A DNA stretch of 64,000 nt from Octopus vulgaris (Eukaryota). The notes beneath the pieces are model-generated. The model made no database searches. It was not told the origin of the DNA and was given only the letters and a program-made list of their open reading frames with translations. The DNA is taken from positions 33,170,001 through 33,234,000 of the forward strand of contig OX597819.1 in the NCBI GenBank assembly GCA_951406725.2, given 5' to 3'. Shown here one piece after another: positions 7,073 to 64,000 of the stretch (within the stretch, counting starts at the first letter, position 1; every line of letters begins with the position of its first letter). Both the position numbers and the translations under genes were made by a program.

Positions 7073-7669
7073 CTATTTCTTTACTACTCACAAGGGGCTA
7101 AACACAGAGAGGACAAACAAGGACAAACGGATTAAGTCGATTACATCGACCCCAGTGCGTCACTGGTACTTAATTTATCAACCCTGAAAGGGTGAAAGGC
7201 AAAGTCGACCTCGGCGGAATTTGAACTCAGAACGTAGCGGCAGACGAAATACCTATTACTTTATTGCCCACAAGGCGCTAAACATAGAGGGGACAAACAA
7301 GTACAGACAAACGGATTAAGTCGATTACATCGACCCCAGTGCGTCACTGGTACTTAATTTATCGACCCCGAAAGGATGAAAGGCAAAATCGACCTCGGCG
7401 GAATTTGAACTCAGAACGTAGCGGCAGACGAAATACCTATTTCTTTATTGCCCACAAGGCGCTAAACATAGAGGGGACAAACAAGTACAGACAAACGGAT
7501 TAAGTCGATTACATCGACCCCAGTGCGTCACTGGTACTTAATTTATCGACCCCGAAAGGATGAAAGGCAAAGTCGACCTCGGCGGAATTTGAACTCACAA
7601 CGTAACGCAGACGAAATACCGCTAAGCATTTCGCCCGGCATGCTAACGTTTCTGCCAGCTCGCCGCCTT
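7073..7669 (-). mobile_element. Head-to-tail trimer of tRNA-derived Nin/Deu-domain SINE (tail type 2)
   Basis: Three near-identical units starting at 7073, 7253 and 7437; only the last has the full head; core gcctttcatcctttcggggtcgataaattaagtaccag; flanked by direct repeat ataatagcta. Confidence 0.9.
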
Positions 7670-8186: not shown

Positions 8187-8400
8187 AGGCGGCGAGGTGG
8201 CAGAATCGTAAGCACGCCGGGCAAAATGCTTAGCGGCATTTCGTCCTCCTTTACGTTCTGAGTTCAAATGCCGCAGAGATCGACTTTAGCTTTCATAGGT
8301 ATCGGAGTCGATAAAATAAGTACCAGTTGAGTACTGGGGTCGATGTAATCGACTAACCCACTTCCCCGAAATTGCTGGCCTTGTGCCAAAATTTGAAATC
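8187..8400 (+). mobile_element. Nin/Deu-domain SINE (tail type 1)
   Basis: Head aggcggcgaggtggcagaatcg, B-box-like gagttcaaatgcc, tail ccccgaaattgctggccttgtgccaaaatttgaaa. Confidence 0.85.
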
Positions 8401-8960: not shown

Positions 8961-9139
8961 TGAGTTTGATGACATTTCTTTTACAGTATCAAAAGTTGCC
9001 AGAAGCAAATAAGTTGGCAAGACATCAGGATACACACACACCCTTAATTGTTTTAAACTAGGGATGATAAGATTCATGATGCTGCTCACAACTGAAGTAA
9101 AACGAGTAATAATGTGAAATATATTTTTTCCAGATTATA

Positions 9140-9557
9140 GGCGCAGGAGTGGCTGTTTGGTAAGTAGCTTGCTAACCAACCACATGGTTCCGGGTTCAGT
9201 CCCACTGCGTGGCATCTTGGGCACGTGTCTTCTGCTATAGCCCCGGGCCGACCAATGCCTTGTGAGTGGATTTGGTAGACGGAAACTGGAAGAAGCCTGT
9301 CGTATATATGTATATATATAAGTGTGTGTGAATATGTTTGTGTGTCTGTTTGTTCCCCTAGCATTGCTTGACAACCGATGCTGGTGTGTTTACGTCCCCG
9401 TAACTTAGCGGTTCGGCAAAAGAGACCGATAGAATAAGTACTGGGCTTACAAAGAATAAGTCCCGGGGTCGATTTGCTCGACTAAAGGCGGTGCTCCAGC
9501 ATGGCCGCAGTCAAATGACTGAAACAAGTAAAAAGAGTAAAAAGAAAAAGAAAGAGT
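9140..9557 (+). mobile_element. tRNA-derived SINE family A (internal TA/TG microsatellite, AAAAGAG tail)
   Basis: A-box/B-box-like head ggagtggctgtttggtaag...gggttcagtccc; near-identical copies at 18408, 51582 and 58345. Confidence 0.9.
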
Positions 9558-12436: not shown

Positions 12437-12869
12437 AGCGGTGAGCTCGGAGAATTATTAGCACATCGGACAAAATGCTTAGTAGCCTTTTACCTTCTGA
12501 GCTCAAATTCCACCGAGGTTGACTTTGCTTTTCATCCTTTTGAGGTCGATAAAATAAGTACCAGTCAAGTACTTAAGGTCGATGTAATCGACTAGCCCCT
12601 TACCTCTAAATTTGCTGGCCTTATCCCAAAACATGAAATTCATATTAACGTGGCCATAAGGCGGCGAGCTGGCAGAACCGTTAGCACACCGGACCAAATG
12701 CTTAGCGGCACTTCGTCCATCTTTATGTTCTGAGTTCAAAATCCGCCGAGGTCGACTTTGTCTTTTATCCTTTCGGAATCGTTAAGATAAGTACTGGTTC
12801 ATCACTAGAGTCAATGATCGACTTACACCCCACCGAAGTTGCTGGCCTTGTGCCAACATTTGAAACCAG
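12437..12869 (+). mobile_element. Two tandem Nin/Deu-domain SINEs (tail type 1)
   Basis: Copies at about 12437-12640 and 12659-12869, each with head, Nin core and gctggccttgtgccaa tail. Confidence 0.85.
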
Positions 12870-17897: not shown

Positions 17898-18407
17898 GGA
17901 AAAAAACGAAACTCGTCAATAAGACATTTTATCCTGTCTGTCTCTCTACTATTTTTACCCAAAATCTACCATAAAGCATCACTAAATATACTGAAATATA
18001 TAACACTGAAGAACATAAACACGAGGTCACATGTACACCAATATACTGCTGGTGAAGCTCCCAAATACTGAATACATAAATGCGTATAATTACAATGCAA
18101 TTAATTCATTTATCGTATTGGATGGGTGAAGGTAAAATATTTTACCGTAAATTCATAATACAAATAAGAAAATGGAGGAACAAATTCATTTCGATTATCA
18201 ACTTACAGATATTACAATTTCATATTATTTATTAATTATACAAATAGGAACATGAAAATCGAACAAAACAATATACATCGATATGCAAATTAATAATGCA
18301 ATAAAAATAATATATATATATATGTATAGTGCAGTGCCCCAGCGTGGCCATAGTCTATTGACTGAAACAATTAAAAGATAAAAGATAATATAAAGATATA
18401 TATATAT

Positions 18408-18812
18408 AGGCTGTGTTGTAAGTAGCTTGCTAACCAACCACATGGTTCTGGGTTCAGTTCCACTGCGTGGCCCCTTGGGCAAGTGTCTTCTGCTATAGCC
18501 CCGGGCAACCAAAGCCTTGTGAGTGGATTTGGTAGACGGAAACTGAAAGAAGCCTGTCGTGTATATGTATATATATATATGTGTATGTGTGTGTTTGTGT
18601 GTCTGTGTTTGTCCCCCTAGCATTGCTTGACAACCGATGCTGGTGTGTTTACGTCCCCGTCACTTAGCGGTTCGGCAAAAGAGACCGATAGAATAAGTAC
18701 TAAGCTTACAAAAAGAATAAATCCCGGGGTCGAGTTGCTCGACTAAAGGCGGTGCTCCAGCATGGCCGCAGTCAAATGACTGAAACAAGTAAAAGAGAGT
18801 AAAAGAGAGTAT
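18408..18812 (+). mobile_element. SINE family A
   Basis: Near-identical to 9140-9557; an extra tail fragment lies at about 18330-18385. Confidence 0.9.
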
Positions 18813-26926: not shown

Positions 26927-28207
26927 TTGGGTTGGCAACTAAGTACCCGCCGTTTTTTAAAATTTTTGAATTTATTGCGTTTTTAAATTTTGGAATCTAC
27001 TTTTTCGAGAATTCTATTTAAGAATTATATTGGGATCTTTTTTTTTTTTTCAAGTTAATTTTAGTTAATTTTGGTTTATTTTCAGATCAATATAATGGAA
27101 TATTAACTTGAGAAAAACAAGCATTTTCAACATCTTATTTTTGCTTTTAATCAAGGTTCTAAGGCTGCAAAACCTGCTTGCGACATTTATGCTGTGTATG
27201 GAGAGGGTTCCATAGCTGAAAGAACCGCTCATGATTGGTATGCCATGTTCAAAAATGGGAATTTTGACCTCAAATACGCACCTCGTTCTGGCCGTCCAGT
27301 TGAGTTCTATGAAGAGCGATTAAACCAACTCTTGCACGAAAATTCTCGTCGAACGACAAGGGAACTGGCAGAGAAAAAGGAATGCTCCCGCACTGCTATA
27401 GAGAAGCATCTTCACTCGATGGGTAAGGTTGAGAAGTATGGATCATGGGTTCCGATTGCTTTAAGTGACAACGACAAAAATCAACGAGCCACAATCTTCG
27501 CTGGCTTGCTTGCTCGTCACCGCTCAACTCATGGACACAAGCAACGGTTTCTTTACCGAATCGTTACTGGCGACCAAAAATGGTGCCTGTATATCAATAT
27601 GAAGCAACGTAAGGAATGGCTTAGCTCCGGTAAATTAGCGACACCGCGCATGAAACAAGATCTTCATCCGCGTACAACGATGTTGTGCGTATGGTGGGAC
27701 TGGTAAGGGATTATCCATTACGAATTACTTGAACAGAACTAAACAGTCAATGCGGAACTTTATGTTCAACAGATGGAACGACTCAACGAGGTCATTCAAT
27801 AGGAAAGACCTAATCGCCAGCATGGAGTTCTTCTGCTGCACGACAACGTCCGCCCTAATATCGCCAATATAACCAAGGAAGCCATTCAAACGCATGGCTG
27901 GGAAGTGCTTCCACAACCGTCGTACTCTCCTGATTTGGCACCAACGGATTTCCACTTTTTTCGATCTCTTTCAAATGCTATGCGCGGAGTTTCGTTCAAT
28001 ACTGATGCAGAATTGAGAGTTGGTTGGAGCAATTTTTCGAGTCGAAATCGGGTGACTTCTACCAACGAGGGATTGATAATCTTGTTGAACGTTGGGAAGA
28101 AGGGTGAATACATTATTGATTAATTAGTTGTTATTCTTTATTACACCTTTTTAAAAAAAATTCGAATTTAAAAAAAAAAACCCACGGTAACTTATTTGCC
28201 AACCTAA
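26927..28207 (+). mobile_element. Mariner (DD34D) transposon, full length, defective
   Basis: TIRs ttgggttggcaactaagt / acttatttgccaacctaa, TA TSDs at 26925-26926 and 28208-28209, length about 1.28 kb. Confidence 0.95.
27095..28123 (+). pseudogene. Mariner transposase pseudogene
   Basis: PRSGRP, WVPIAL, IVTGDQKW, LLHDNVRP, YSPDLAPTDF; in-frame stops at about 27704 and about 27800, plus frameshifts. Confidence 0.93.
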
Positions 28208-28943: not shown

Positions 28944-29689
28944 TATATTATATATGTATGTACGTATTTAGGTAAGTAGGCGTGTGTGTATTTAAATTGC
29001 ACGCATATATATATGTGTGCGTATATACATACAATTACATGTATACATGTGTGTATGTCTCTGTGTGTAATTGTGTGCATACGTTGTACGCATACACACA
29101 CATTTGTGTGAGTGTATGTGTATGTCTTTGTGTGCGTGTGTAAGCGTGTATGTATATATATATATGTGTGTGTATGTGTGCCTGCGTTAGTGTGTGTGTG
29201 TATGTATGTGCAGGAAATGTTCATCCATCATCGACATTAAATGTTGCAGTAACTCCTGAGAACTAACGTTTGCAATATCTTTGTGTAAAAAAATAACTAG
29301 CAAGAGCGAAAGAGAGAGAAAGTAAGAGAGAGAGAGGGAGAGAGGGAGAGGGAGAAAAATAGAGAAAGGTAGAGAGATAGAGAGAGACTGAGAGAGAGAG
29401 CAAATCAGTCGGACAGACACAGAGACAGATAGAGAAATAGAGATGCAGAATAAGCCGATGCGGTATTTTTTTTTATGACAAAATGTTGTTGATCAAACTA
29501 TCCCCAATCCACTGCATTTTAAAGGTTTTCAATTCAATCGCCAGCCATTGTCGAAGATTCAATCTTGAAACTGTCTCTCTAAGAGAAAACCATTTTAGTA
29601 CCGATCCTATGATAATCAACAAAACTAGACATGTTTTTTTTTGGGGTGGTTTTTTTTTTTTTGCATTTCTTTTCCGCCAAAAAAAAAAC

Positions 29690-29774
29690 CATGATGATGA
29701 TGACGATGATGATGATTATGATGATGATGATGGTGATGATGACGACGATGATGATGATGATGGTGATGGTGATG

Positions 29775-29833
<59 letters not shown>

Positions 29834-29986
29834 GTGATGGTGATGACGACGATGATGATGACGATGATGGTGATGATGGTGATGATGACGACGATGATGA
29901 TGACGATGATGGTGATGATAATGATGATGATGATGATGATGATGACGACGATGATGACGACAATGATGTTGATGATAATGATGATG

Positions 29987-30059
<73 letters not shown>

Positions 30060-30068
30060 CGATGATGG

Positions 30069-30110
<42 letters not shown>

Positions 30111-30920
30111 CGATGATGATGACGACGACGATGACGACGACGATGATGGTGATGAAGACGACAACGACGACGACGGCAACGAGGATGATGATGATAATGA
30201 TCATGACGACGATAATGGTGGTGCTGCTTGTGCTGGTGGTGGTGGTGGTCCTGGTGGTGGTGGATGTTGTTGTTGTTGGTGGTGGTGGTGGATGTTGTTG
30301 TTGCTGGTGGTGGTGGATGTTGGTGGTGGTTGTGGTGGTGGTGGTGGGTGGTAATGATGAAGAAGATGGTGACGGTGCCGACGACGACGAAGATGATGGT
30401 GCCGACGACGACGACAAAAGATGATGATGATGATGATGATAATGATAATGATGATGATGATGATGATGTTGACGACAATGATGGTGGTCACGATCATGAC
30501 AGTGATCATGATTCTGGTGGTTATGGTGGTGGTGGAGTTGGTTGACATTGGTATGGTGATGGTGGTGGTGATGGTGATCCTGGTGGTGGTGGTGGTGGTG
30601 GTGGAGTTGGTAGTGAGGAGGAGGAGGAAGAAAAGCATGAAGATGCTTAAGGATGAGGAGGTTCTTGCTGGTGGTGCTACTATTATTGTTATAGTTATTG
30701 TCGGTGATAGTGGTGGTGGTGGTGAAGGTGGTGGTGGTGGTGGTGCTGCTGCTGCTGCTGCTGCTGCCGCTACAGGTGTTTGTGTCGGTGGCGGCGATGG
30801 TTGTTCTAGTGCTGGTGCTATGTTAAAAATAGCATTGTGGTATTGAAGAAATTGGCGGTGATAGCGATGGTGATGGTGATGGTGATGAATGATGATGCTT
30901 ATAACGGTGACGATGATAAC
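29690..30920. repeat. Compound trinucleotide satellite (GAT/GAC/GGT/GCT), about 1.2 kb
   Basis: Direct reading; source of the poly-D/M/H/S/V ORFs. Confidence 0.97.
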
Positions 30921-33716: not shown

Positions 33717-33949
33717 GGGCGGTGAGCTGGAAAAATCATTAGCACGACGGGTGAAATCTTTAGCGGTATTTCGTCTGCCGTTACATTCTGAGTTCAAATT
33801 CCGCCGAGGTCGATTTGCCTTTCATCCTTTCGGGGTCGATTAAATAAGTACCAGTTACGCACTGGGGTCGAGGTAATCAACTTAATCCCTTTGTCTGTTC
33901 TTGTTTGTCCCCTCTATGTTTAGCCCCCTATGGGCAATAAAAAGAAATA
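33717..33949 (+). mobile_element. Nin/Deu-domain SINE (tail type 2), full length
   Basis: Head, Nin core and tail tttgtctgttcttgtttgtcccctct...gccccctatgggc...gaaata; flanking direct repeat taaatgataagc (33704-33715, 33954-33965). Confidence 0.9.
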
Positions 33950-36407: not shown

Positions 36408-36794
36408 GTGGAGGCGCAATGGCCCAGTGGTTAGGGCAGCGGACTCGCGGTCGTAGGATCGCGGTTTCGATTCCCAGACCGGGTGTTGTGAGTGTTTATT
36501 GAGCGAAAACACCTAAAGCTCCACGAGGCTCCGGCAGGGATGGTGGTGATCCCTGCTGTACTCTTTCACTACAACTTTCTCTCACTCTTACTTCCTGTTT
36601 CTGTTGTACCTGTATTTCAAAGGGCCGGCCTTGTCACTCTCTGTGTCACGCTGAATATCCCCGAGAACTACGTTAAGGGTACACGTGTCTGTGGAGTGCT
36701 CAGCCACTTACACGTTAATTTCACGAGCAGGCTGTTCCGTTGATCGGTTCAACCGGAACCCTCATCTTCGTAACCGACGGAGTGCTTCCATCCA
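36408..36794 (+). mobile_element. tRNA-derived SINE family C, young full-length copy
   Basis: A box tggcccagtgg, B box ggtttcgattcc; 12-bp TSD tcctatcagtag (36396-36407, 36795-36806). Confidence 0.92.
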
Positions 36795-39290: not shown

Positions 39291-39676
39291 GATGGAAGCA
39301 CTCCGTCGGTTACGACGACGAGGGTTCCGGTTGATCCGAATCAACGGAACAGCCTGCTCGTGAAATTAACGTGTAAGTGGCTGAGCACTCCACAGACACG
39401 TGTACCTTTAACGTAGTTCTCGGGGATATTCAGCGTGACACAGAGAGTGACAAGGCCGGCCCTTTGAAATACAGGTACAACAGAAACAGGAAGTAAGAGT
39501 GAGAGAAAGTTGTGGTGAAAGAGTTCAGCAGGGATCACCACCATCCCCTGCCGGAGCCTCGTGGAACTTTAGGTGTTTTCGCTCAATAAACACTCACAAC
39601 GCCCGGTCTGGGAATCGAAACCGCGATCCTATGACCGCGAGTCCGCTGCCCTAACCACTGGGCCATTGCGCCTCCA
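39291..39676 (-). mobile_element. tRNA-derived SINE family C, young full-length copy
   Basis: Near-identical inverse of 36408-36791; 14-bp TSD ctgtagctacagtt (39277-39290, 39677-39690). Confidence 0.92.
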
Positions 39677-39844: not shown

Positions 39845-40291
39845 TCATTCTTTTATTCTTTTACCTGTTTCAGTCATTGGACTGCGACTATTCTGGAGTA
39901 CCGGCTTAAAGAGCTTTAGTCGAAGAAATCAACTCCAAGTCTAATTCTTTAAAAGCTTCGTACTTATTCTATCAGTCTCTTTTGCCGAACCGCTAAGTTA
40001 CGTGGATATAAACACAGTAGCATCGGTTATCAGGCGATGACGTGGGTTGGGGGAACAAACACAGACAAACACACACGGACGCACGCGCGCACGCACACAC
40101 TCACACACACACATACTCACTCACACACATACGACGGGCTTTGCGTCTGCTAAATCCACCCACTTACAAGGCTTATAGTCGGTCCGACGCTATAGTAGAA
40201 GACTCTTGACCAAGGCGCCATTCAGTGGAACTGAACTCAAAACCATGTGGTTGGGAAGCAAGTTTCTTACCACACAGCCATGTCTGCGCCT
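39845..40291 (-). mobile_element. SINE family A, older copy
   Basis: Reverse-complement similarity to 9140-9557 over its full length. Confidence 0.85.
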
Positions 40292-40504: not shown

Positions 40505-40716
40505 TATTTCTATATTGCCCACAAGAGGCTAAACACAGAGAGGACAAACAAGGACAGACAAACGGATTAAGTCGATTATATCGACCCCAGTGCGTCACTG
40601 GTACTTATTTAATCGACCCCGAAAGGAAGAAAGGCAAAGTCGACCTCGGCGGAATTTGAACTCAGAACGAAGCGGCAGACGAAGTACCCCTAAGCATTTC
40701 GTCTGGCGTGCTAACC
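40505..40716 (-). mobile_element. Nin/Deu-domain SINE (tail type 2)
   Basis: gcccacaagaggctaaacacagagaggacaaacaaggacagacaaa tail plus Nin core. Confidence 0.88.
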
Positions 40717-41597
40717 TTTATATATCATCAGTCCTGTCTCTCACTACTCTATACTTACTCTGTTATCTGGAGTCTGATTTCCTCTTCTGCCAAGTAGTAA
40801 CCAGAACAAAAATGAGTTCAGTTCCTTTCCCAGCAAATCGAAGAATACTCCACCTCTGCGATACGAACATGCAACATCAAGAGATGAAAAATAGACTTTT
40901 TATCCACTGTGACGTCTCCACTACAAAGATTAAAATTTTTAGTTATACACACAGTTCTGGTTTTAAATACTAAAATACTGAGATCTGTCTTGTACGTTTA
41001 TTGTATTCAAAGCTTCCGAGGCTGGAATTCTTATAGTTGTTATTTTAACCTCCTACACCGTAAGGACTTACCAGTATTTACACTGAACTAAATGCTGCCA
41101 CAGGGATTTCTCTTTCTGCGATTCAAGATACAGGAATGACATTCCCACTGATCTCTGGCTGAATAACTCTCTACTGATAGAATCAAACGACACATCAAAC
41201 ACTTGTTATAATGGGATTTTTCTTCCTTTGCCTCGAGAGAAAAAAACACCAGTCACCATACTTTGATACATATTGTCTTCGCAGTTCTACAAGCCAGCCT
41301 TTCGGAGTTGAAACACTTTATACATTTTATTATTCATTTATTCATGAAACTGCGAAATTGGAATTACTGCTTGTGAGATTTGATTGTTTTCTAAATGTAT
41401 TTTAATATGTTTACGTTGTCGTAACACATCTAATAAGGATTATATTGTGATATTTTATGATCTAGTGAAGCCCACAGCTTTAAATTGCATTTTTATTCTG
41501 TTACAAGTTGGAGCAGTTAATATTAATATTAAGAGCTTTACTTTAAGGAACACTATGAGTTCATATTCTAAAGCCTCTTTTTAATCAATATTCATCA

Positions 41598-43290: not shown

Positions 43291-44265
43291 TATATATATA
43301 TATATATGTGTGTGGGGAGAGGGAGAAAGTGAGAGAGAGAGAGGGGTAAATATTTTTACAGCTCTTGGAAGAAAGACCAGGTCAAACGTTTAAAGGTTAC
43401 GGGGGAGTGGAACATATATAACGTATGGCGAAAGAACAAGAGAAATTACTGGATAGTGTGGTTAGGGAATTGGTGAAGGTTGCTACTACAGAAAACTATG
43501 ATTTGTAATCCTAAGGACAGAGAAAGGCAATAGGACAAAATATGTCCGTGGGCTTAGGAGTTGTAGAGTATATTTAAGCGGAGGTTTAACTATGTAGAAT
43601 TTGCATATTTATAGTAACTATATCGTCCCAAACATGTGAGCAATATGGATCGCATTTACGATTTGTGGAGGGTCTATAATTCATGAAGATTGAAGTATTA
43701 CTACCTCTTAAGAAGAAAGATAGCCTTGAAGGTGCAGTTTTGACTATAGATGTTAGGTTTCATTAAATGTCATAAAGTGTTACGAAGCTGAGCATTTAAA
43801 AGATTTGTGAAAAGTTTGTGTATTGTGCATGTTTCTTAGCTGTTTTTAAGAAGTACTTAGTGGGACTGTTGAAGTAGATTAGGTTTTCATGTACTCATTA
43901 GGTTATGGTTTCTTGGCTTTTATTTATAAAAGCGATGTATGCCTTATGTGAGGATCTAGATTGTATCTTTTTATCTTCACCGATTACATACTGCAACTGA
44001 TTGATTTGTGAGGAATCTTCATTTCTCGAAGGTATGAAAGGGATAGACAGTGAGAGTAGAGCCTACAAGAATTTAGAATCTTGTGACATAGACGCTCCGA
44101 GGATTTTCAGATACGAATGAAAGCAAACGATACTTTTTGACAAGGTTTGAAAAAACAGAAACCGTAAGTGTGCAATTATTAGAGCCCTTGTATTTCTGGT
44201 TCTATGGGAACGAATTTTGTTCCCATAGAAAGAAAAATACGACAGTTTCTACCACATTTGAGAGA

Positions 44266-44478
44266 TTGGTTTCAAATTTCGGCACAAAGTTAGCAATTTG
44301 GGGGGGAGGATGGAGTTAGTCGATTATAGTGATCTCAGTGCCTATCTGGAACTTATTGTATCGATCCATGAAGGATTAAAGGCAAAGTCGGTAAAATTTA
44401 AACTCAGAACATGAAGACGGACGAAATGCCGCTAAGCTTTTTTCCCGGTGTGCTAACAATCCTGTCAGCACGTCTCCT
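44266..44478 (-). mobile_element. Nin/Deu-domain SINE (tail type 1)
   Basis: tggtttcaaatttcggcacaa tail; ggcaaagtcg; aactcagaac...gacgaaatgccgctaagc head. Confidence 0.8.
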
Positions 44479-48260: not shown

Positions 48261-48418
48261 ATGGCTGTGTGATAAGAAGCTTGCTTCCCAGCAACATGGT
48301 TCTGGGTTCAGTCCTGTTGCGTGGCACCTTGAGCGCAAGTGTCTTCTACTATAGCCTCGGTGCTGACCAAAGCCTTGTGAGTGTATTTGGCAGACGGAAA
48401 CTGAAAGGAGCCAGTCGT
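48261..48418 (+). mobile_element. SINE family A, 5' half
   Basis: tggctgtgtgataagaagcttgc...gggttcagtcc...gacggaaactgaaagg. Confidence 0.8.
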
Positions 48419-48824
48419 ATATATATATATATATATATATATTGTATAGAGGGCATTATTACACATAAATGCCACATGCTAGGAGGGACTTTCAAAGTCA
48501 TTACTACCAAAAATAAACGAATCGTACCGAATACAGCTCTCGAAGCAAGACATTTAGAAACAGAATTTAGCTCCAGATCACCTGTGATTTCGCAATTAAC
48601 GTATTATCTACGTTTTTTGTTCATCAGTGAAACATATTCAGAACACATCAAAAATAAACAAAACCAACATACCTCGCGGAACCGAACAGACAACTGTCGC
48701 CTCCATCGTAGCACATGGAAATGTTTATTCATCATATATTCATGTAAATGGCGGGCTTTTTCGAACTGCATTTCGTTAAGAAACATGTTTCTTCGGAACA
48801 AATTTATATATATATATATATATA

Positions 48825-50432: not shown

Positions 50433-50743
50433 AAAATGATCTTATATCTATCTGAATTAAAACGGGGTATCAGAAGCATTCCGCATGTATTACCATACGT
50501 GTTCACCAAGGTATCAACCAATGATAACCACTACAACGACAACCACCGCCACCACTACATACGACAAAAGATAGTAAAGTCAACGAAAGATCGTTTATGT
50601 GATCGCTTCCAGCTAACATCAGTGGAATCATCTTCAAATCGCACTCTACCATTGGGCAACGCCATGCTAGATTTACAGAGAAAATAGTGACGACTGATTG
50701 CCTTTAATAATTTGACCTGGGATTAAATAACCCTTTGTATTAA

Positions 50744-51147
50744 TGGCACAAGATCTAAAATTTGGGGGCGTGGGACTAGTTGATTACATTGACCCCAGTG
50801 TTTTACTGGTACTTAATTTATTGACCCCGAAAGGATCAAAGACAAAGTCGGCCTCGGCGGAATTGGAACTCAGAATGTTGCGACGGACGAAATATTGCTA
50901 AGCATTTCGTGAACGTGCTAACGATTCTGCCATCTCGGTGCCTTACAGGTACAAGGCCTGAAATTTTAGGGAAGGGTACTAGTCGATTGCATCGATCCCA
51001 GTGTTTCACTGGTTCTTAATTTATCGATTCCGAAAGGATGAAAGACAAAGTCGACCTCGGCAGAAGTTGAACTCATAAACGTAAAGACGGACGAAATGTC
51101 ACTAAGCATGTCGCCCGGCATGCTAACTATTCTGCCAGCTTGTCCCT
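50744..51147 (-). mobile_element. Two tandem Nin/Deu-domain SINEs (tail type 1)
   Basis: Copies at about 50744-50944 and 50948-51147. Confidence 0.85.
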
Positions 51148-51527: not shown

Positions 51528-51581
<54 letters not shown>

Positions 51582-51583
<2 letters not shown>

Positions 51584-51752
51584 CGCAGGAGTGGCTGTGT
51601 GGTAAGTAGCTCGCTAACCAACCACATGGTTCTGGGTTCAGTCCCACTGCGTGGCATCTTGGGCAAGTGTCTTCTGCTATAGCCCCGGGCCGACCAATGC
51701 CTTTTGAGTGGATTTGGTAGACGGAAACTGAAAGAAGCCTGTCGTATATATG

Positions 51753-51783
<31 letters not shown>

Positions 51784-51998
51784 GTGTTTGTGTGTCTGTG
51801 TTTGTTCCCCTAGCATTGCTTGACAACCGATGCTGGTGTGTTTACGTCCCCGTCACTTAGCGGTTCGGCAAAAAGAGACCGATAGAATAAGTACTAGGCT
51901 TACAAAAAGAATAAGTCCCGGGGTCGAGTTGCTCGACTAAAAGGCGGTGCTCCAGCATGGCCGCAGTCAAATGACTGAAACAAGTAAAGGAGAAAGGA
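51582..51998 (+). mobile_element. SINE family A, young full-length copy
   Basis: Near-identical to 9140-9557; inserted in a TA tract. Confidence 0.92.
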
Positions 51999-52018
51999 GA
52001 TATATGTGTGTGTGTGTA

Positions 52019-55840: not shown

Positions 55841-55874
<34 letters not shown>

Positions 55875-56815
55875 GTAGGTGCCAGTGTTATACTTCTAGT
55901 CTATAGGGGGTGGGGAGGAAATCTAGTAGCAAATGCTTGTGTCCGTTCTGGCTAAGATCAGTGACTGTAGAGTTATTTTTGGCAATGGGGTTATGGTTGT
56001 GTAGGTAGTTGTGAATGGAGAAACTAATTGAATGTTTAATTATGTAGGAGTAGGAGTTAGAATTAAATATTAGGGGATTTATTATCCTCTTGTCTATTTT
56101 GGATCTAAGTCCTTCTCATTCGCAAAATTAGCCCCTCCCCCACTTAATTTTGATCAGATTGCTTTCAATTTTGGTGTATCGATGCAACTCTGAATTTTGA
56201 TTACAATCAACCGATTACTTTATTTCGTAAATTAAAGAATGTGATGTTATTTGGAATTAAAGTTGGGAAATTTGGGTAATTTTAGCCAATCAACAGACAG
56301 CGTGACATTAGCAGCTTGTTACCATGACAATAGGACGTTGTGTTGTGGTTCACTTCACTGTTGTCTGTGCTGCTATTGTCTATGTTGATTTTTCACACTT
56401 TATTCTTCATATCACGAGACTCTTTTCACCCGTGTGTTTTGTTTTAATTTTTCTGTGTGTTAGCATATTATATATTTTTTCTGTGCTTCTGTGTGTTAGT
56501 ATTTTTCTGTGCTTTTTCTGTGTGTTAGTATTTTTACATATTTTTCATTTCATATATTTTAGGGATTCATGAATTTATAATTTCACTAGGTTAATTCTAT
56601 TCATAAACATTTAAATTAGGAGTATTTCTTAAACCATTAGCTTCACATTTCAACAGCTTAACTGAAATTTAGCCCACGTAACCAGAACCGAGAGGAGATG
56701 ATTTAACATTATTTTTTATATATAAGATACATGTATTCCATTCCTTGGGACAAATTCTTTGTTGACCGGTGTTATTCTTATCGTAGTTTACAAATCCAAG
56801 CATAAAAACATTCTT

Positions 56816-56848
<33 letters not shown>

Positions 56849-57445
56849 TGCACTTATATATTAATGATGTATTGACAGGTATACATAATACTGGAATACG
56901 CATAAAGTAAACATACGCAGACAAATATATTAATATAACAAATGTTTAGAAAATAATAAAAACATACAATCTATGAAGAGACAAAAGAAATAGTAAGTTG
57001 ATACACGTTGATTTTATTAGGTATTTCTGTCTATTTAGAAACCTACAATGAACACATCAGACGCTAAACTATAAATTTCGCAGGGTACAGTTGACACAGC
57101 TCCGCTAAACGCAGAAAACTGGTTTAAAATATTGGTTAAAAATACAGTTTTTTCGATTTTTAAACTTCTATAACTTTTTTCTCCAATTTTTGTCTCCACA
57201 ACATCATACCTTCAAAGCAACGAGACTGGATGCCTACATTATTATAGCCGATTTTCAGACTTTTTACTTCCTTTTTAAAAAAATGTATATTTTGCGAATG
57301 AAAAAAACTAAATCCGCTATTTTTGTACACTATATTCTTTGACACTATATTTTTATATACTTAATAAATCCCTTAATATCTAATTCTAAATCCTACTCCT
57401 AAATAATTTAACATTCAACTAGTTTCTCCAATCACGACTACCTAC

Positions 57446-57677
57446 CTATTTCTTTACTGCCCACAAGGGGCCAAACACAGAGGGGACAAACAAGGACAGA
57501 CAAAGGGACCAAGTCGATTATATCGACCCCAGTGCGTAACTGGTACTTATTTAATCGACCCCGAAAGGATGAAAGGCAAAGTCGACCTCGGCGGAATTTG
57601 AACTCAGAACGTAGCGGCAGACGAAATACTGCAAAGCATTTCGCCCGGTGTGCTAACGTTTCTGCCAGCTCGCCACC
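57446..57677 (-). mobile_element. Nin/Deu-domain SINE (tail type 2), full length
   Basis: Head, Nin core and tail; interrupts an older repeat that also occurs inverted at about 55960-56090. Confidence 0.92.
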
Positions 57678-58344
57678 TATAACTCCATTGCTAAAAATAA
57701 CTCTACCACCACTGGTAGAGTTATTTGGACATAAGCATTTACTACTAGATTTCTTCCACACACCCCATAGACTAGAAGAATACGACAAGCACCTACTTTT
57801 CTCCTTAAATTCTTTTCATTTTGCTCTATTTTGTTTATTTTTTTACGTTATCTCCCTCTGCCCCGTCCTCCTCCCTCTTAACTTCTTAGGCAGTATATTT
57901 TTATATACCTTACTTTATCCTTAATGCCAATTCTTAACTTTCCCCTCATTCTAGCTACCTCTCTTTCTATTCATTTACTTTTCTTTCTTTTTACCGCTTA
58001 ATTGATACCTCCGCTACAAATTCTGTTATTGAACGTTGATATGTTCCCCTCATTTTTCTGGATGTTTACAATATCAAGACTTTAACCCACATAGATTTAC
58101 GCAGGATTGCACCTAAGGACTTATGGACTTATTTCATCAAGATCGGGAAGTTGAACTATGACCCTTTTATGCTTCTTTTTCTTCTCTTTCTTCATCTCCT
58201 TATTCATTTACTCCTGTCCACTATGTCGTCATTTCATTAATCTATGCCCTTCTCATTTTCCCTATTTGTCTTCGATGACGGAATATCATATACTCTGGGG
58301 TATCCCAGGAACAGCTCTAAGAATTTGAATTTTTCCAATAATAA

Positions 58345-58716
58345 TCTTCTCTTTCTTCTCTTTTCTCTTTTACTTGTTTCAGTCATTTGACTGCAGCCAT
58401 GCTGGAGCACCGCCTTTAGTCGAGCAAATCGACCCCGGGACTTATTCTTTGTAAGCCCAGTACTTATTCTATCGGTCTCTTTTTGCCGAACGGCTAAGTG
58501 ACGGGGACGTAAACACACCAGCATCGGTTGTCAAGCAATGCTAGGGGGACAAACACACACATACATACATATATACGACAGGCTTCTTTCAGTTTCCGTC
58601 TACCAAATCCACTCACAAGGCATTGGTCGGCCCGGGGCTATAGCAGAAGACACTTGCCCAAGGTGCCACGCAGTGGGACTGAACCCGGAACCATGTGGTT
58701 TGTTAGCAAGCTACTT
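58345..58716 (-). mobile_element. SINE family A, cut in its tRNA-like head by the Tx1-like LINE
   Basis: Matches 51582-51998 up to gcaagctactt; the expected accacacagccactcctgcgcc is replaced by the LINE 3' end. Confidence 0.9.
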
Positions 58717-58944
58717 TATTTCATATAATTTGCCATTTAGGCATTTACAAAGAGGGGACAAACAAGGACAGACAAATATAAAGGGTGAAGTAGCTTAACA
58801 CAGTTACAATTTTCGAATGAAATTACGGATAAGATTATAAACAATGAATTTTACGAAGGCAATGTTTAAAAATATTAATGATCATGTCGAAGGACGGACA
58901 CCCAGCCATCCGGGTAGAACCTTTACTTTCTGATCCGGTCACAC

Positions 58945-61900
58945 TTACCTGGTGCCAAACATACCCATCTTGTATGCCACAGGCTTCCATCTTTTCACAA
59001 ACATATCTCGTGACAGACACCTCTTCTCCAGCCTGATTTTGCTACTGAGGTGGTAACTAAAAAAGTTAATCAACCCCTGGCCGGAGACAAAGGTGCCTGT
59101 CACTATACCTTTCGTACGCGTCTTCCATACTGTTTCTTTCAATATGGCTACTACACAGAAAAAACAAGCCTTTCTTTCCCTGTTAAGGAAAGGGGGCGGC
59201 ACAATCTCGATGATAGACTCAGCTGATAGCTGTACTCTTCCCATCACTGACAACAGTTGTTCAACAAAAGCTATCAGTCCCGATAACTCCGGACACTCCA
59301 CGAATACGTGCAAGACGGTCTCCCTATCCTGCTCACATCGCGGGCATGTCGGCGAGACGGCACTACCGTGCCTTGACAGCTTGTCGCGAACAGGTAAAGC
59401 CGCACGGAAACACTGCCAGGCCAGGGATTTCTGGTAATTATCCAGATACCCCGGCCCGAACGTCCTCCGGAACAGGTTGACCAACTGATTTTCATCGTAG
59501 CCCAGGGTCTCCCCCAAGGCATCTTCGGACTTAATCTCCACTAACCCGCTATAGAAATCCGTGGTGGAACTCCTGTTGCCGGCGTTGCCCACCCGAGATA
59601 GTAGCTGGAGCGCCTGACGGCACTCCAAATGCCATTCACTCAGTTTAGGTCTCCGCTTGATCCATGCACCGATGTCCGTTAGGGATGTTAACTGGGGAAG
59701 GTAGAACCGGACGTGCGGTGACCACACCTGCTCTCCATCCAGGTAAAGCCAGAGGTGCCTCAACCTTAACGCGAGTTTTCGCATCCTCAGCCAAGGCATC
59801 CCTAGCCCACCCTTTAGCGGTTTCTGGCAGCAGACAGAGCGCTTTACAAGTGGCTTTCCTCCTTTCCACAAAAATCGGAAAAGGATTCTCTCCAACTTGT
59901 TCAGCCACAAATCGGGGCAAGGCACCACGGTCAGACGGTAGGTGATTACTGATGCTATAAACATCTGCACCACCTCCGCCTTCCCTAGCAGGGATAACGC
60001 CCGCCCAGACCAGGTCTGGGTTAGAGCGGTCACCTTGTTGGCCACCTCACTCCAATTTTTCTCAATCTGGAGGTCTGGCCCGAACCAGACTCCGAGCAGC
60101 TTAACAGGACCTTCTGTCCAACACCCTACGACGTTATTGGACGGCATCGGCTTGCCCCTCCAGGTGCCGAGTTGCAAACCGACCGACTTGTCCTTGTTAA
60201 CCTTTGCTCCTGCCACCGCCTCGTAGCTTTTGATGGCCTCTTCCACCACTGGAAGCTGGCCTTCGTCTGCCACGATGATGGAGGTGTCATCCGCATACGC
60301 CGTAGCTCCTCTTCCACACCATAGATCATGCGGCGCGCCCCCTAGTGCCTCCAACTTCCGCAGCAAAGGCTCAAGAGCCAATACGTATAGGAGCGAGGAC
60401 AGGGGACACCCTTGACGAACTGAACGCTCGATCCTGAACGGCTTCGAAAAGGAACCGTTCACCTTGACTACAGACTCGATGTCGCTATACAAAGCAGCGA
60501 TCCAACCTCGAAAGGTCGGGCCTAGGCCAGCCTCTCCGAGGACCGCCGCCAGGTACCGATGGTCGACCCTATCAAATGCTTTGGACTGGTCTAAATGTAC
60601 CAGTGCTCCCCCTGCGCCAGAAAGCTTCCCCACCCTCTCTAAGGAGTAGCGTATAAGGTGGAGATTGTCGTGGATCGTTCTGCCGGGGATAGCGCACGTT
60701 TGCGCTTCCCCGACAAGTTTGTCCACGACCCGCGCCAACCTTTTTGCTAGCACCTTGGCCAGAATCTTTAACTCTGTGTTTAACAGAGTTATGGGCCTGA
60801 AGTTCCCTATCTCGTCCCCCTTGTTCGGGTCCTTCCTGATCAACGTCACCGCCCCCCGGCTCGCAGACTTGGGAATTCTCCCATTCTGCTGCCAGTTGGC
60901 GTAGACGCTAGCCAGCAGGTGCCCGAACAAGTCTGGCATACTTCTATAAAATTCATAGGGCAGACCATCGAGACCCGGCGACTTCTCCCCGGGGCACTTG
61001 CCCAACACCTCGATTACTTCCTCGGCTGTGATTGGCCCTTCACAGCACTCAGCCTCTCGTGTCGAGAGGCGCGGGCCACCAGACAGGAAGTCCCTAAGGG
61101 CCTCACCATGATCCAGCGTCCCGCACCTCCCGAACAACTCGGCGAAGTGCTTGTGAAGTGCCTCACACATCTCGTCCCGCTTCTTGATCGTGCATCCGTT
61201 TTCATCAACAAGAGACCCAATTGTGGCATCGTTTCCACGCTGTGTTTCTATCGTACGGGCCCATCCGGCAACATTAATTCCCTCACGGCCCAATGCTCGT
61301 ACTTTATCCCGGACTCTACATCCCTCATGTTTGGTTTTGAGGTGACGGTCTAATGCAGTTCTCGCCGCTAAAATGTGAGATGCAGAGCCCAACCTCAACG
61401 CCTCCTCTAAGTTCTTAACTAGTTGCCCTTCTATTCTAGCCCTATCTAGTCTTAGTTGTTTACTAAATCTAATGGACTCGAATCGAATGGCTCTTTTGAG
61501 GATGAACCACCACCGGTTATTAACCACGGCTCCGGTTAACGCCCTCTGCACTAACACCTTAATCCGGCTACGGTATGCCTCGCGTGTCAAAGTAGACTTG
61601 TTCAGCTTCCAGTAGCCGGTTCCTATCTTAAGTGTGCTATCTATGTCCAGTCTACACGTGACCATTCTATGGTCAGTATAGGGCACCTGGACGAGCTGTG
61701 GACAACTAAAACTAGACTTATCTCTAGTTCTTATCACTATCCTGTCTAGATAAGACTTGAACCTTCCGTCGCCACTCATCCAGGTCCACTCTGGGACATT
61801 CGGATGGTCAAGTCTGTAACGATCTGCCAGCTGAAACCGCTTAAGCAGATCCACGAGACGTGAGTTCACTTTCCTATAGATCGAGCCAACGCTATCGATG

Positions 61901-62346
61901 TGTACGTCAACGATAGCATTAAAGTCCCCTAATATCACTAAAGTCTTCGACGTCACGAGAAAGCCCTCTAGGTGCCTATAAAAATCAGTTTGGAAACCTC
62001 TAGCACAAGGTGCATAGAGTCCGATCAACCTGAAGGCCTTACTGCTGTATGTCACATCAAGGACGACCAGCCCACCTTCTGGGTCTACATAGACTGTACT
62101 TGTCTGTAGAGCCAAGTCTTTACGGATCAGTACCACTACGCCCCCTCGCCCTCCGGTCTGGCCAGGAGACATGATTTTCTCGTAGCCATTCAGGAGAGGC
62201 AAGAAGGTTTGTAGGCTGTCCAGCTTGGTCTCTGTAGCAACCATCACATGTATATCATGTGATCTGAGGTCGTCGAGGAAACAAGCCTGCTTCCACTTCG
62301 AACTCAGACCACGCACATTTAAACAACCAAGGTTAAGCGAAGCCAT
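58945..62346 (-). CDS. LINE ORF2: APE endonuclease + reverse transcriptase + C-terminal zf-RVT (1133 aa, uninterrupted)
   Basis: EN motifs LNVRGL, ETKL, LYAP, LGDFN, SYLDRI, TDH; RT motifs KSPGLDG, FRPITLLN, LDQSKAFDRV, VRQGCPLS, YADD; C-terminal CPRC...ETVLHVFVEC. Confidence 0.97.
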   Translation of the reverse strand: MASLNLGCLNVRGLSSKWKQACFLDDLRSHDIHVMVATETKLDSLQTFLPLLNGYEKIMSPGQTGGRGGVVVLIRKDLALQTSTVYVDPEGGLVVLDVTYSSKAFRLIGLYAPCARGFQTDFYRHLEGFLVTSKTLVILGDFNAIVDVHIDSVGSIYRKVNSRLVDLLKRFQLADRYRLDHPNVPEWTWMSGDGRFKSYLDRIVIRTRDKSSFSCPQLVQVPYTDHRMVTCRLDIDSTLKIGTGYWKLNKSTLTREAYRSRIKVLVQRALTGAVVNNRWWFILKRAIRFESIRFSKQLRLDRARIEGQLVKNLEEALRLGSASHILAARTALDRHLKTKHEGCRVRDKVRALGREGINVAGWARTIETQRGNDATIGSLVDENGCTIKKRDEMCEALHKHFAELFGRCGTLDHGEALRDFLSGGPRLSTREAECCEGPITAEEVIEVLGKCPGEKSPGLDGLPYEFYRSMPDLFGHLLASVYANWQQNGRIPKSASRGAVTLIRKDPNKGDEIGNFRPITLLNTELKILAKVLAKRLARVVDKLVGEAQTCAIPGRTIHDNLHLIRYSLERVGKLSGAGGALVHLDQSKAFDRVDHRYLAAVLGEAGLGPTFRGWIAALYSDIESVVKVNGSFSKPFRIERSVRQGCPLSSLLYVLALEPLLRKLEALGGAPHDLWCGRGATAYADDTSIIVADEGQLPVVEEAIKSYEAVAGAKVNKDKSVGLQLGTWRGKPMPSNNVVGCWTEGPVKLLGVWFGPDLQIEKNWSEVANKVTALTQTWSGRALSLLGKAEVVQMFIASVITYRLTVVPCPDLWLNKLERILFRFLWKGGKPLVKRSVCCQKPLKGGLGMPWLRMRKLALRLRHLWLYLDGEQVWSPHVRFYLPQLTSLTDIGAWIKRRPKLSEWHLECRQALQLLSRVGNAGNRSSTTDFYSGLVEIKSEDALGETLGYDENQLVNLFRRTFGPGYLDNYQKSLAWQCFRAALPVRDKLSRHGSAVSPTCPRCEQDRETVLHVFVECPELSGLIAFVEQLLSVMGRVQLSAESIIEIVPPPFLNRERKACFFCVVAILKETVWKTRTKGIVTGTFVSGQGLINFFSYHLSSKIRLEKRCLSRDMFVKRWKPVAYKMGMFGTR

Positions 62347-62363
62347 TACAAAAAGTAAAAGTT

Positions 62364-63767
62364 CTACTTACATTTCGTTGGAGAGGTGGGGGCCGACCTC
62401 ACCACACGTTTGTGGGCCCCTTCTTTCTCCTCTTTCTTCAGATAGTCCGGCAAGTTTGCGATATGCCGAATGGCGTTTGGGTGTCTGTCTTTTAATTGTT
62501 TGAACGTTGTTTCCGCAATCCACGCGTGTCTATTTCGATCTTTGTATTTGTTGTACAGTCTTGCTGACTGATGCTGAGCCACAATATCGTTTATGTATTT
62601 GTCTTGTGTGTCGAATTCAATTAATATGAGTTCATTTTCTTTTTTGTCTTCTTTTTCTTTGCCAGTTGAGCGGGATTTTTTTTTCCGTGTCTGTGGTGTG
62701 TCTTTGTTTTTATTATTTTTTGTAGGGGTTGTGGACGGGGATGCTGCACGAATTCTTTTACGAACTGGTGTAAATCCCCCTCTGATACCTCCATGGTATC
62801 GTCTGGGGTAGCAATAGTTTGTTCGGTAGGCGCCGCAGTTTTTAGGGGGGTGGGAGGCTTTAATAGTGTAGGGGTTTGTGAGTGCGGGGGCTGGGTTTTT
62901 TTCTTCAGTCTGTTTTGGGGTTGGCACCGTAACAGCAGGAGTGGGATTTTTTGTTTTTGTAGGGGTAGGTGTGTTTGCAAGGGTAGGGACTTTTTTATTA
63001 TCTGAGGGGCCTGGTGTCTGCGGTTTCTTTTGCTTGTCTGGACAGTCTACACGAATGTGGCCCTTTTTGCCGCAGGCGTAACAGGTGGGTTTTCGGCCTT
63101 CGACCTGTACCCTGAGGGCTACGTTCTCGCCCACGAGCACCCTCTCAGGAAGGAGCTGCAGGTCCTCCGCTGTTCCTTGAATTAATATATTAATGTTACG
63201 CCCGAGCCAAAATAGAGGGGTAGAGCATGTTACTTGAAGTATTTTTATTTTGTCTGCCCTTTTATATAACAGGGCGGCCACTACCTCTACCGGATCTACT
63301 TCCGGCGGGGCTTCTACAATCCTGACCCGGGACGTCCTGCGGCCCCTATAGCTTGGGAAAAGTACCACCTCCTTGGTTTTTAGGGGGTTCACAGAATGCC
63401 CGCGGGCCATTTCTTCCCCCGAGAAGCGAACATCCACAGTGCCATATGCCCGTCCCCTGGCGACGTACACGATGTCCTTCCAAATCGGGGACAGGCATTT
63501 CTCGATGGTGCTTTTTTCAAAGTGTTTGAACCTTCTGCTTTGTGGACAGAAAGTTTTAAACACTACGGTCCGCTTCTCGGTCTCCACGATACTGGCGGAG
63601 GGTGATATTTTAACATCACCACCCTCCTCTTGCATTCTTTTAAATAGCTCGACGAGCTGATTGACATCGATGCCAATGTTCTCGGTAGCCACTGCGGCTA
63701 CCGCAGAAAATTTTTTAACATTGCTCTCCTCAAGAGCACTACTTTCGTGAATAATTTCAACAGACAT
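62364..63767 (-). CDS. LINE ORF1 nucleic-acid-binding protein with CCHC zinc knuckle
   Basis: First ATG at 63767 (the track starts at TTG 63791); CYACGKKGHIRVDC knuckle followed by a P/T/K-rich linker; ends 17 nt before the ORF2 ATG. Confidence 0.9.
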   Translation of the reverse strand: MSVEIIHESSALEESNVKKFSAVAAVATENIGIDVNQLVELFKRMQEEGGDVKISPSASIVETEKRTVVFKTFCPQSRRFKHFEKSTIEKCLSPIWKDIVYVARGRAYGTVDVRFSGEEMARGHSVNPLKTKEVVLFPSYRGRRTSRVRIVEAPPEVDPVEVVAALLYKRADKIKILQVTCSTPLFWLGRNINILIQGTAEDLQLLPERVLVGENVALRVQVEGRKPTCYACGKKGHIRVDCPDKQKKPQTPGPSDNKKVPTLANTPTPTKTKNPTPAVTVPTPKQTEEKNPAPALTNPYTIKASHPPKNCGAYRTNYCYPRRYHGGIRGGFTPVRKRIRAASPSTTPTKNNKNKDTPQTRKKKSRSTGKEKEDKKENELILIEFDTQDKYINDIVAQHQSARLYNKYKDRNRHAWIAETTFKQLKDRHPNAIRHIANLPDYLKKEEKEGAHKRVVRSAPTSPTKCK

Positions 63768-64000
63768 TATTCTGTTGAAATTAGACAACACAAAAATTAC
63801 GAATATAGGTTTCCCACAAAACTGGGAAACCTATAGAAAGTTTTTCTTCCAAAGTAGTTCAAAAAAGCAGTTCAAAAATTCCAATTCCCACCCCCATTCG
63901 GGGGAGGGGCACGAAAATAGTCTGGCAGGACTATATATAGTCACGTAAATAAAAACCACAATGGCTAACAGTTCAACGGTTAGAAATTATTCAATTATTT

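Follow-up and report, generated by a model that had tools for sequence, protein, structure and literature searches.

In a 64,000-nucleotide stretch of Octopus vulgaris DNA (hereafter the window), comparison of sequences indicates that the 3' ends, over their last ~60 bases, of a tRNA-type SINE and of a Tx1-like LINE lineage are homologous. We judge it probable that the tail of this SINE is derived from a Tx1 element and that a Tx1 element drives the SINE. The LINE copy in the window has both open reading frames (ORFs) intact and lies in the head of a second SINE, a position that an earlier, sequence-only note on this DNA had missed.

Results

A common 3' end in the LINE and the tail-2 SINE

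A 26-nt block is identical (26/26 nt) in the LINE and in the SINE at 57447, as the earlier note had claimed; allowing up to three mismatches it occurs at six positions of the window and at none in 100 shuffles (Table 1). The remaining four matches, at 7286, 7470, 33890 (plus strand) and 40537, carry one mismatch each, and the third unit of the 7074-7669 array, which has a 4-nt deletion inside the block, was left out of the count. Over the 34 nt that follow the block, the LINE and the 33717 copy are identical at 21 positions in an ungapped alignment (0/2000 shuffles), with corresponding shuffle counts against the LINE of 15, 2 and 2 of 2000 for the copies at 57447, 7438 and 40505. The downstream homology is significant in four of five slices, the nonsignificant slice, from the unit at 7074, having been 4 nt out of register. 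Upstream of the block LINE and SINE have no significant likeness, and the part common to both is therefore ~60 nt long. Homology to the LINE ends where the SINE body ends, and the block lies at the same distance from both 3' ends. The common 3' terminal sequence that marks a stringent SINE/LINE pair is present.

The block is a TG/TC-rich stretch of low complexity with a shorter look-alike in the second SINE, and such a sequence could in principle match by coincidence. The zero count in shuffled sequence, the equal spacing from the two ends and the significant homology downstream in four of five copies effectively refute this explanation, to which we assign a negligible probability.

Table 1. 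Features of the LINE, the SINEs and their tails in the window.
Feature	Positions	Strand	Remarks
Tx1-like LINE, both ORFs open	58715..64000	-	5' end lies past the window edge at 64000
ORF1, 467 aa, one CCHC zinc knuckle	62364..63767	-	
ORF2, 1133 aa: AP endonuclease (10-226), RT (509-754), zf-RVT (973-1020)	58945..62346	-	
LINE 3' UTR, 230 nt, terminal AAUAAA (58720-58715), no poly(A)	58715..58944	-	
3' UTR stretch antisense to the LINE's own insertion site	58784..58796	-	9 nt exact, 12/13 with one bulge
26-nt block common to LINE and SINE tail type 2	58751..58776	-	
LINE terminal hairpin, 4-bp stem, 5-nt loop	58731..58743	-	predicted pair probability 0.67-0.76
Second SINE, tRNA-type head	58365..58716	-	first ~22-24 nt missing at the LINE 3' end
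tRNA-type SINE, tail type 2	57447..57678	-	A-box-like 57667-57656, B-box-like 57603-57593
26-nt block in SINE tail	57479..57504	-	
SINE hairpin, 4-bp stem, loop CUUGU	57459..57471	-	
Inverted paralogue of the 57447 SINE flanks, without SINE (empty site)	55874..56084	+	
Head-to-tail array of three tail-2 units	7074..7669	-	one full, two from SINE nt ~48
Tail-2 SINE copy	33717..33949	+	16-19 nt target duplication
Tail-2 SINE copy, shortened head	40505..40721	-	weaker ~10 nt target duplication (8/300 shuffles)
Tail-1 SINE, same body, GGC-CUUGU-GCC hairpin	8187..8400	+	matched by related-end profile
Two tandem tail-1 copies	12437..12868	+	second matched by profile, first not
Tail-1 copy	44264..44478	-	weak profile match (E 2.9)
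Two tandem tail-3 copies	50725..51146	-	both matched by profile

Structure and affiliation of the LINE

The LINE displays the layout of the Tx1 clade, namely two ORFs, the second encoding an AP endonuclease, a reverse transcriptase (RT) and a C-terminal zinc finger. A CCHC zinc knuckle in ORF1 is a further feature of that clade, and here it is recognised by PF00098 (E 4e-5); ORF1 aligns with its counterparts in the related array elements described below at 25-28% identity over about 150-245 aa. Among named relatives, a protein of Argonauta hians is closest to ORF2 (60% identity), and ORF2 scores 228 bits against human L1 ORF2p and about 76 bits against R2. In a FastTree phylogeny of 102 RT segments the window LINE and the array elements form one clade (support 1.00), and this falls, together with elements that occupy U2, U1 and 5S genes, in a larger clade (0.98). 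The tree was midpoint-rooted and made without mammalian L1, its references being labelled by target rather than by name, and Tx1 membership is for that reason likely and short of proof. The domains, the ORF2 scores and the RT tree rule out a CR1/L2 or R2 element. A candidate Tx1-like LINE, taken as an L1-clade element with an intact ORF2, had been proposed in the earlier note; the endonuclease, RT and zinc finger are indeed intact, and the element is likely Tx1-like and more distant from mammalian L1. Named Tx1 references were absent from the protein matches, cluster members and atlas matches, no relatives of ORF2 were found in viral contigs, and the number of RNA holders listed for the LINE was zero.

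The LINE terminates in GAAAUAAA with its AAUAAA intact and the flank directly adjoining, although the final two A's may be target-derived. The same note had both elements ending in GAAAUA without poly(A); the lack of poly(A) is borne out, but the LINE ends otherwise. Indeed, the 3' poly(A) tail of mammalian-type (relaxed) L1 is absent both from the LINE and from 19 related ends.

U2 sequence accompanies six, and 5S sequence one, of the 20 best metagenome loci related to ORF2; U1 sequence was present in one of 20 further metagenome loci and in L138, whose contig is labelled as a Metamycoplasmataceae MAG. In the junctions listed, the genes are split by the related elements, with A-runs on the 3' side; the Tx1-type insertions lie in U1 (L138, L036), U2 (L003, L004, L006, L008, L010, L012) and 5S (L016) genes. 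Another 59 of the 62 loci from genome contigs, at 38-43% identity, are contigs of a single MAG labelled Arenicella, which we take to be eukaryotic and probably host DNA. These contigs (CAXXMW01..., loci L081-L137, L139 and L142) hold head-to-tail arrays of mostly intact two-ORF Tx1-like LINEs of several subfamilies, spaced about 6.3-6.9 kb. No RNA genes were found between the array elements, whose target is therefore not a listed RNA family; the arrangement is reminiscent of telomeric or self-targeting retrotransposons.

The window itself is microsatellite-rich animal DNA. It contains a Mariner-type transposase fragment (HTH_48, Transposase_1) at 27107-27706 on the plus strand, a long (GAT)n-rich trinucleotide tract at 29590-30220 that gives rise to spurious open frames, and 208-nt inverted repeats at 36537-36744 and 39340-39547, 99% complementary and 2.6 kb apart with no long ORF between, possibly a non-autonomous DNA element.

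The block in other copies of the LINE

Contigs of four public runs (X3, X10, X14 and X16), which represent three organism labels and four studies, were compared with 58670-59570 at 85% likeness; contig depth in these data is not copy number. A 263-nt contig of X3 matches 58747-59009 with no differences and carries the block, the UTR and the end of ORF2 at a depth of 19.5, ORF2 contigs of that run having depths of 15-20.4. A second X3 contig, matching 58735-58877 at about 90% identity (14 differences and one gap over ~143 nt), holds both block and hairpin, and one X10 contig covers 58694-59027. In at least three X16 contigs the block, with 6-20 LINE-specific bases, is linked to ORF2 over a UTR that does not align, and at least two more are ambiguous for this join. 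The block thus belongs to the LINE family, diverged relatives included, and the alternative envisaged by the earlier note, a SINE fragment inserted in this one copy, is ruled out by the contigs of X3, X10 and X16. Just outside the block, at 58779, X16 reaches a depth of 29,773, against 44-88 for the single contigs among those listed; such depths suggest that the block is present in many LINE copies. Near the ORF2 zinc finger, at 59411-59444, contig depth in X3 and X10 is ~35 times that of the LINE, which points to a related element of much greater abundance.

The LINE copy differs from its X3 contig at 3 of 447 nt, and the tail-2 copies are mutually 88-94% identical, the array pair excluded. 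The LINE copy is therefore younger than these SINE copies, and an older or sister family may consequently have made most of them. Loose contig ends at 58743 (at least four contigs in X3 and at least three in X14) reveal a second LINE family with the same terminus and another upstream UTR. The block is absent from this second family and is therefore dispensable across the lineage.

Tail-2 copies of the SINE

A profile of the SINE body found 13 strong matches in the 64 kb, with three types of tail. The element has A- and B-box-like motifs, no ORF, target duplications and many copies, as a tRNA-derived SINE should, and its body is one that we take to be Nin/Deu-like. The earlier note had placed the tail in three copies at 7073-7669 and in those at 33717 and 40505; it is present in all, but the three at 7074-7669 make up one head-to-tail array, enclosed by a target duplication of 10 nt or more. 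Within this array, units 1 and 2 have variants in common and are 98% alike, whereas unit 3 is different. A GGTA in the SINE head marks the start of units 2 and 3, and the SINE may have inserted into its own head, with duplication afterwards. Target duplications of 10-19 nt thus accompany three of the four tail-2 loci, the SINE at 57447 having no significant one. The regions 55874-56084 and 57362-57797 constitute an inverted local duplication in which the SINE is present in one copy and missing from the other.

With ARAGORN, neither the window nor 21 loci yielded a tRNA. Rfam models of the 150 rows listed for the window comprised only miRNAs and snoRNAs below gathering scores, nearly all on simple repeats. 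The tail-2 pattern had no match in the genome, viral or metagenome contigs searched, and a search with a SINE-body motif gave one match, in a bacterial MAG.

Tails 1 and 3 and the ends of related LINEs

The 59 array loci yielded 19 distinct LINE ends. These ends, all of one assembly and picked by a pattern demanding a first small hairpin and AAUAAA, consist of a C-tract, two successive hairpins and AAUAAA with no poly(A) after it. Folded one by one, all 19 form both hairpins, the second keeping its stem in varied sequences. A profile built from these ends alone matched the window seven times at E<5, and the top five matches are tails 1 and 3 of the SINE. These score 12.0, 11.9, 10.0, 9.0 and 3.9 bits, the best score in 20 shuffled windows being 8.9; five of the six tail-1 and tail-3 copies are matched, three of them at 10 bits or more versus none in the shuffled windows. 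None of the six tail-2 copies was matched by this profile, nor was the window LINE's own end, which in turn had only two matches of 15-16 nt among 189 loci, taken as chance. No other LINE clade with a match to the tail was found in the window or in these 189 loci.

All tails of the SINE family look Tx1-derived, a finding that is new here. Since tails 1 and 3 resemble the Tx1 ends of another organism and tail 2 that of the window LINE, tail exchange within one Tx1 lineage would be the simplest reading.

Transfer in the opposite direction must also be weighed: a LINE ancestor could have captured the SINE tail by recombination or template switching, another LINE driving the SINE. The block is identical to the consensus of the young SINE, a shorter motif like it occurs in the second SINE family, and the second LINE family has the same terminus without it. 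Moreover, SINE RNA and DNA are far commoner, block depth exceeding LINE depth by orders of magnitude in all four runs. Against this, diverged LINE copies keep the block even though their UTR has ceased to align, homology stops at the end of the SINE body, and the Tx1 ends matched by tails 1 and 3 belong to an assembly where the SINE body was not found. We regard capture by the LINE as improbable, and a Tx1 origin of the tail as the better reading.

The hairpin of the tails

As the earlier note stated, a 4-bp stem with a 5-nt loop begins 7 nt past the block in both LINE and SINE. The two hairpins are in register, and two compensatory pairs distinguish the stems of the LINE and of tail 2. The pairing, claimed to have been kept, is to that extent confirmed, but only three of the six SINE copies (57447, 33717 and 40505) have all four pairs, each unit of the 7074-7669 array having one stem mismatch. 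The loop is UAAAU here, with a UUAAU variant in other LINE copies; the SINE loop CUUGU differs from both and is that of the related LINE ends.

Predictions of folding are less uniform. None of eight tails is more stable than its shuffles (z -1.75 to +1.76), and among five SINE copies folded the predicted probability of the hairpin is about 0 in three, 0.24 in one and 0.59-0.96 in the other; in the rival predicted fold the block pairs with the 3' arm. Over 11 distinct hand-picked rows 41 of 44 cells are paired, a count that may mix non-homologous hairpins because the hairpin sits where the relatives have their second stem: in the relatives a 4-bp hairpin precedes a long stem, whereas in the LINE and tail 2 it sits atop one. 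RNAalifold predicted only the invariant first hairpin in 14 related ends, with no covariation because the second hairpin was misaligned.

The hairpin is a likely candidate for what ORF2 recognises, as modelled here. It is nevertheless possible, at a clearly lower probability than Tx1 drive as such, that the tail is Tx1-derived and that what ORF2 binds is a longer stem or the pyrimidine block, or that priming depends mainly on the A-rich end pairing with the nicked target over 2-3 nt. Sequence conservation is seen in the block but not in the loop, the predicted SINE folds favour pairing of the block with the 3' arm, and at several junctions the 3' end and the target have AA or ATA in common. 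On the other hand, a 4-bp hairpin with a 5-nt loop is present in all tail classes, and between the LINE and tail 2 its pairing is kept through double changes. The hairpin consequently stays our first candidate.

The insertion site of the LINE

The 3' end of the LINE adjoins nt ~23-25 of the second SINE, which is presumably CORE-like; what is left of that SINE shares 96-97% identity with three other window copies. The X10 contig that matches 58694-59027 crosses this junction. Summed contig depth is greater at 58726 than at 58738 in X3 (128.9 vs 64.3), X16 (91,026 vs 18,180, with single contigs among those listed at 44-88) and also X14, and the two are equal in X10. The excess indicates that contigs extend into the flank, and the high depth that the flank is a common one. 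We therefore think it fairly likely, though with a shade less assurance than Tx1 drive of the SINE, that the junction is recurrent and the LINE a SINE-targeting Tx1 element, which is new here.

The same picture could arise if a master copy landed once in the second SINE and spread by 3' read-through, or if the runs show one locus. LINE and second SINE are joined with no poly(A) between them, the window contains the 3' junction alone, the 5' flank lying past 64000, and contigs cannot count independent events. However, the terminus is found at this place in two variants and also in a second family whose upstream UTR is different, the closest relatives that carry labels lie in U2, U1 and 5S genes, and repeats are the preferred targets of many Tx1 families, according to the available text of PMC4494074. 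A single landing is accordingly the less probable account, if one to be taken seriously, and recurrent insertion is the one that we prefer.

Further copies of the second SINE lie at 9139-9540, 18400-18800, 39900-40290, 48270-48430 and 51581-52000. Two of these are in TA microsatellites, and the copies end in short AG-rich repeats, which points to a different driver for this SINE.

The 3' end of the LINE is followed by the trinucleotide GTA, as are those at three of five tail-2 junctions when only GTA assignable to the target is counted (four of five with 40505), versus none of five tail-1 and tail-3 junctions; three of five has a binomial probability of 3e-4, in a small sample and for a motif noticed after the fact. 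Likewise noticed after the fact, the 9-nt antisense match of the 3' UTR to the junction was equalled in 16 of 2000 shuffles. A similar antisense stretch is seen by eye in the loose ends of the second family (13/14), and the likeness of the UTR to the target in the sense strand is not significant. A decayed inverted fragment of the second SINE would explain the stretch, and its role as a guide to the target is a lead only.

Discussion

Taken together, these findings suggest how the SINE may be mobilised. Pol III would transcribe it from its tRNA-type head. A Tx1 family would have supplied its tail, and repeated exchanges of tail would have followed, given that tails 1 and 3 correspond to related Tx1 3' ends and tail 2 to the family of the window LINE. 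The driver of tail 2 might be that family; a sister family whose loop is CUUGU is about equally probable. The driver's ORF2 protein would bind the poly(A)-free, structured tail of the SINE RNA, with its predicted hairpin, and its endonuclease would nick a preferred GTA-type site, where the A-rich end could prime by pairing with the target over 2-3 nt. The SINE RNA would then be copied by target-primed reverse transcription and integrated with a 10-19 nt duplication, while the LINE itself would home in on the head of the second, abundant SINE.

It is tempting to speculate that the LINE is RNA-guided, the antisense UTR stretch pairing with the displaced top strand at the nick, but we hold this to be a long shot. 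Equally far-fetched at present would be the full three-way octopod system, in which a poly(A)-free Tx1 element drives all tails of one SINE and, guided by RNA, inserts in the head of the other.

SINEs account for 11.6% of the assembly of Octopus vulgaris (PMC13282606, available text), and octopus SINEs are dominated by tRNA-Core and tRNA-Deu types in the part of PMC8967140 at hand. A named driver was not found in the accessible portions of the literature on them; the LINE, with its intact ORF2, is a candidate driver that can be assayed. According to one proposal, L1-group LINEs were ancestrally stringent and later relaxed (PMC3747384, in the text available). If our reading is true, an animal element of the L1/Tx1 group with a common structured tail would offer a direct test of that proposal, and the two largest octopus SINE families would be tied to one retrotransposon lineage.

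Comparison with known systems

A Tx1 LINE/SINE tail pairing in the octopus group was not found in the available parts of the literature, and Repbase, Dfam, SINEBase or supplements may record one. Among the closest parallels are ZmSINE2/3 with LINE1-1_ZM and SINEX-3_CR with L1-1_CR, in which an L1-group LINE and a tRNA SINE likewise have a common 3' end, with a stem-loop in the maize pair; as given in the text available, these pairings are interpreted as stringent recognition and, unlike the octopus pair, are confined to plants and a green alga (PMC3747384). Of 58 pairs, the same source counts three in which the SINE has an L1 tail; no Tx1 partner and no mollusc appear in its table, as available.

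The Nin-DC/Deu SINEs of Nematostella, bivalves and vertebrates resemble the octopus SINE in combining a conserved body with exchangeable LINE-derived tails, but their partners in the accessible text are L2, CR1, CR1-Zenon, Crack, RSg-1 and Nimb, with no Tx1 (PMC3747384, PMC11481361, PMC4824008).

SINEU and Tx1-Mar of crocodilians, so far as the text at hand describes them (PMC4494074), are alike in that SINEs are inferred to be Tx1-mobilised with a common target preference, Tx1 targets another transposon, and SINE insertions are in tandem. SINEU, however, has snRNA heads and poly(A) tails, whereas the octopus SINE has a tRNA-type head and no poly(A); no LINE with the 3' end of SINEU-1 is reported there, whereas in octopus the tail sequence is common to both elements; and the Tx1 target, another transposon there, is probably a SINE head in octopus. 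Keno, which targets U2, and other target-specific Tx1 elements (PMC4494074, available text) belong to the same broad RT clade and likewise have a multicopy target of small-RNA type.

At the U2 site GTA follows the 3' end of the inserted elements, as it does at the octopus LINE. Keno-type and other U2-, U1- and 5S-inserted elements end in A-runs, whereas the octopus LINE lineage forms its own clade (1.00) and the LINE ends in AAUAAA. The resemblance of the second SINE to CORE-SINEs is our own presumption. The Octopus OK, OR1 and OR2 elements, compared by description only, are also tRNA-derived octopus SINEs, and OR1 and OR2 are cited as CORE-SINEs in the portions available of PMC4824008 and PMC5804259.
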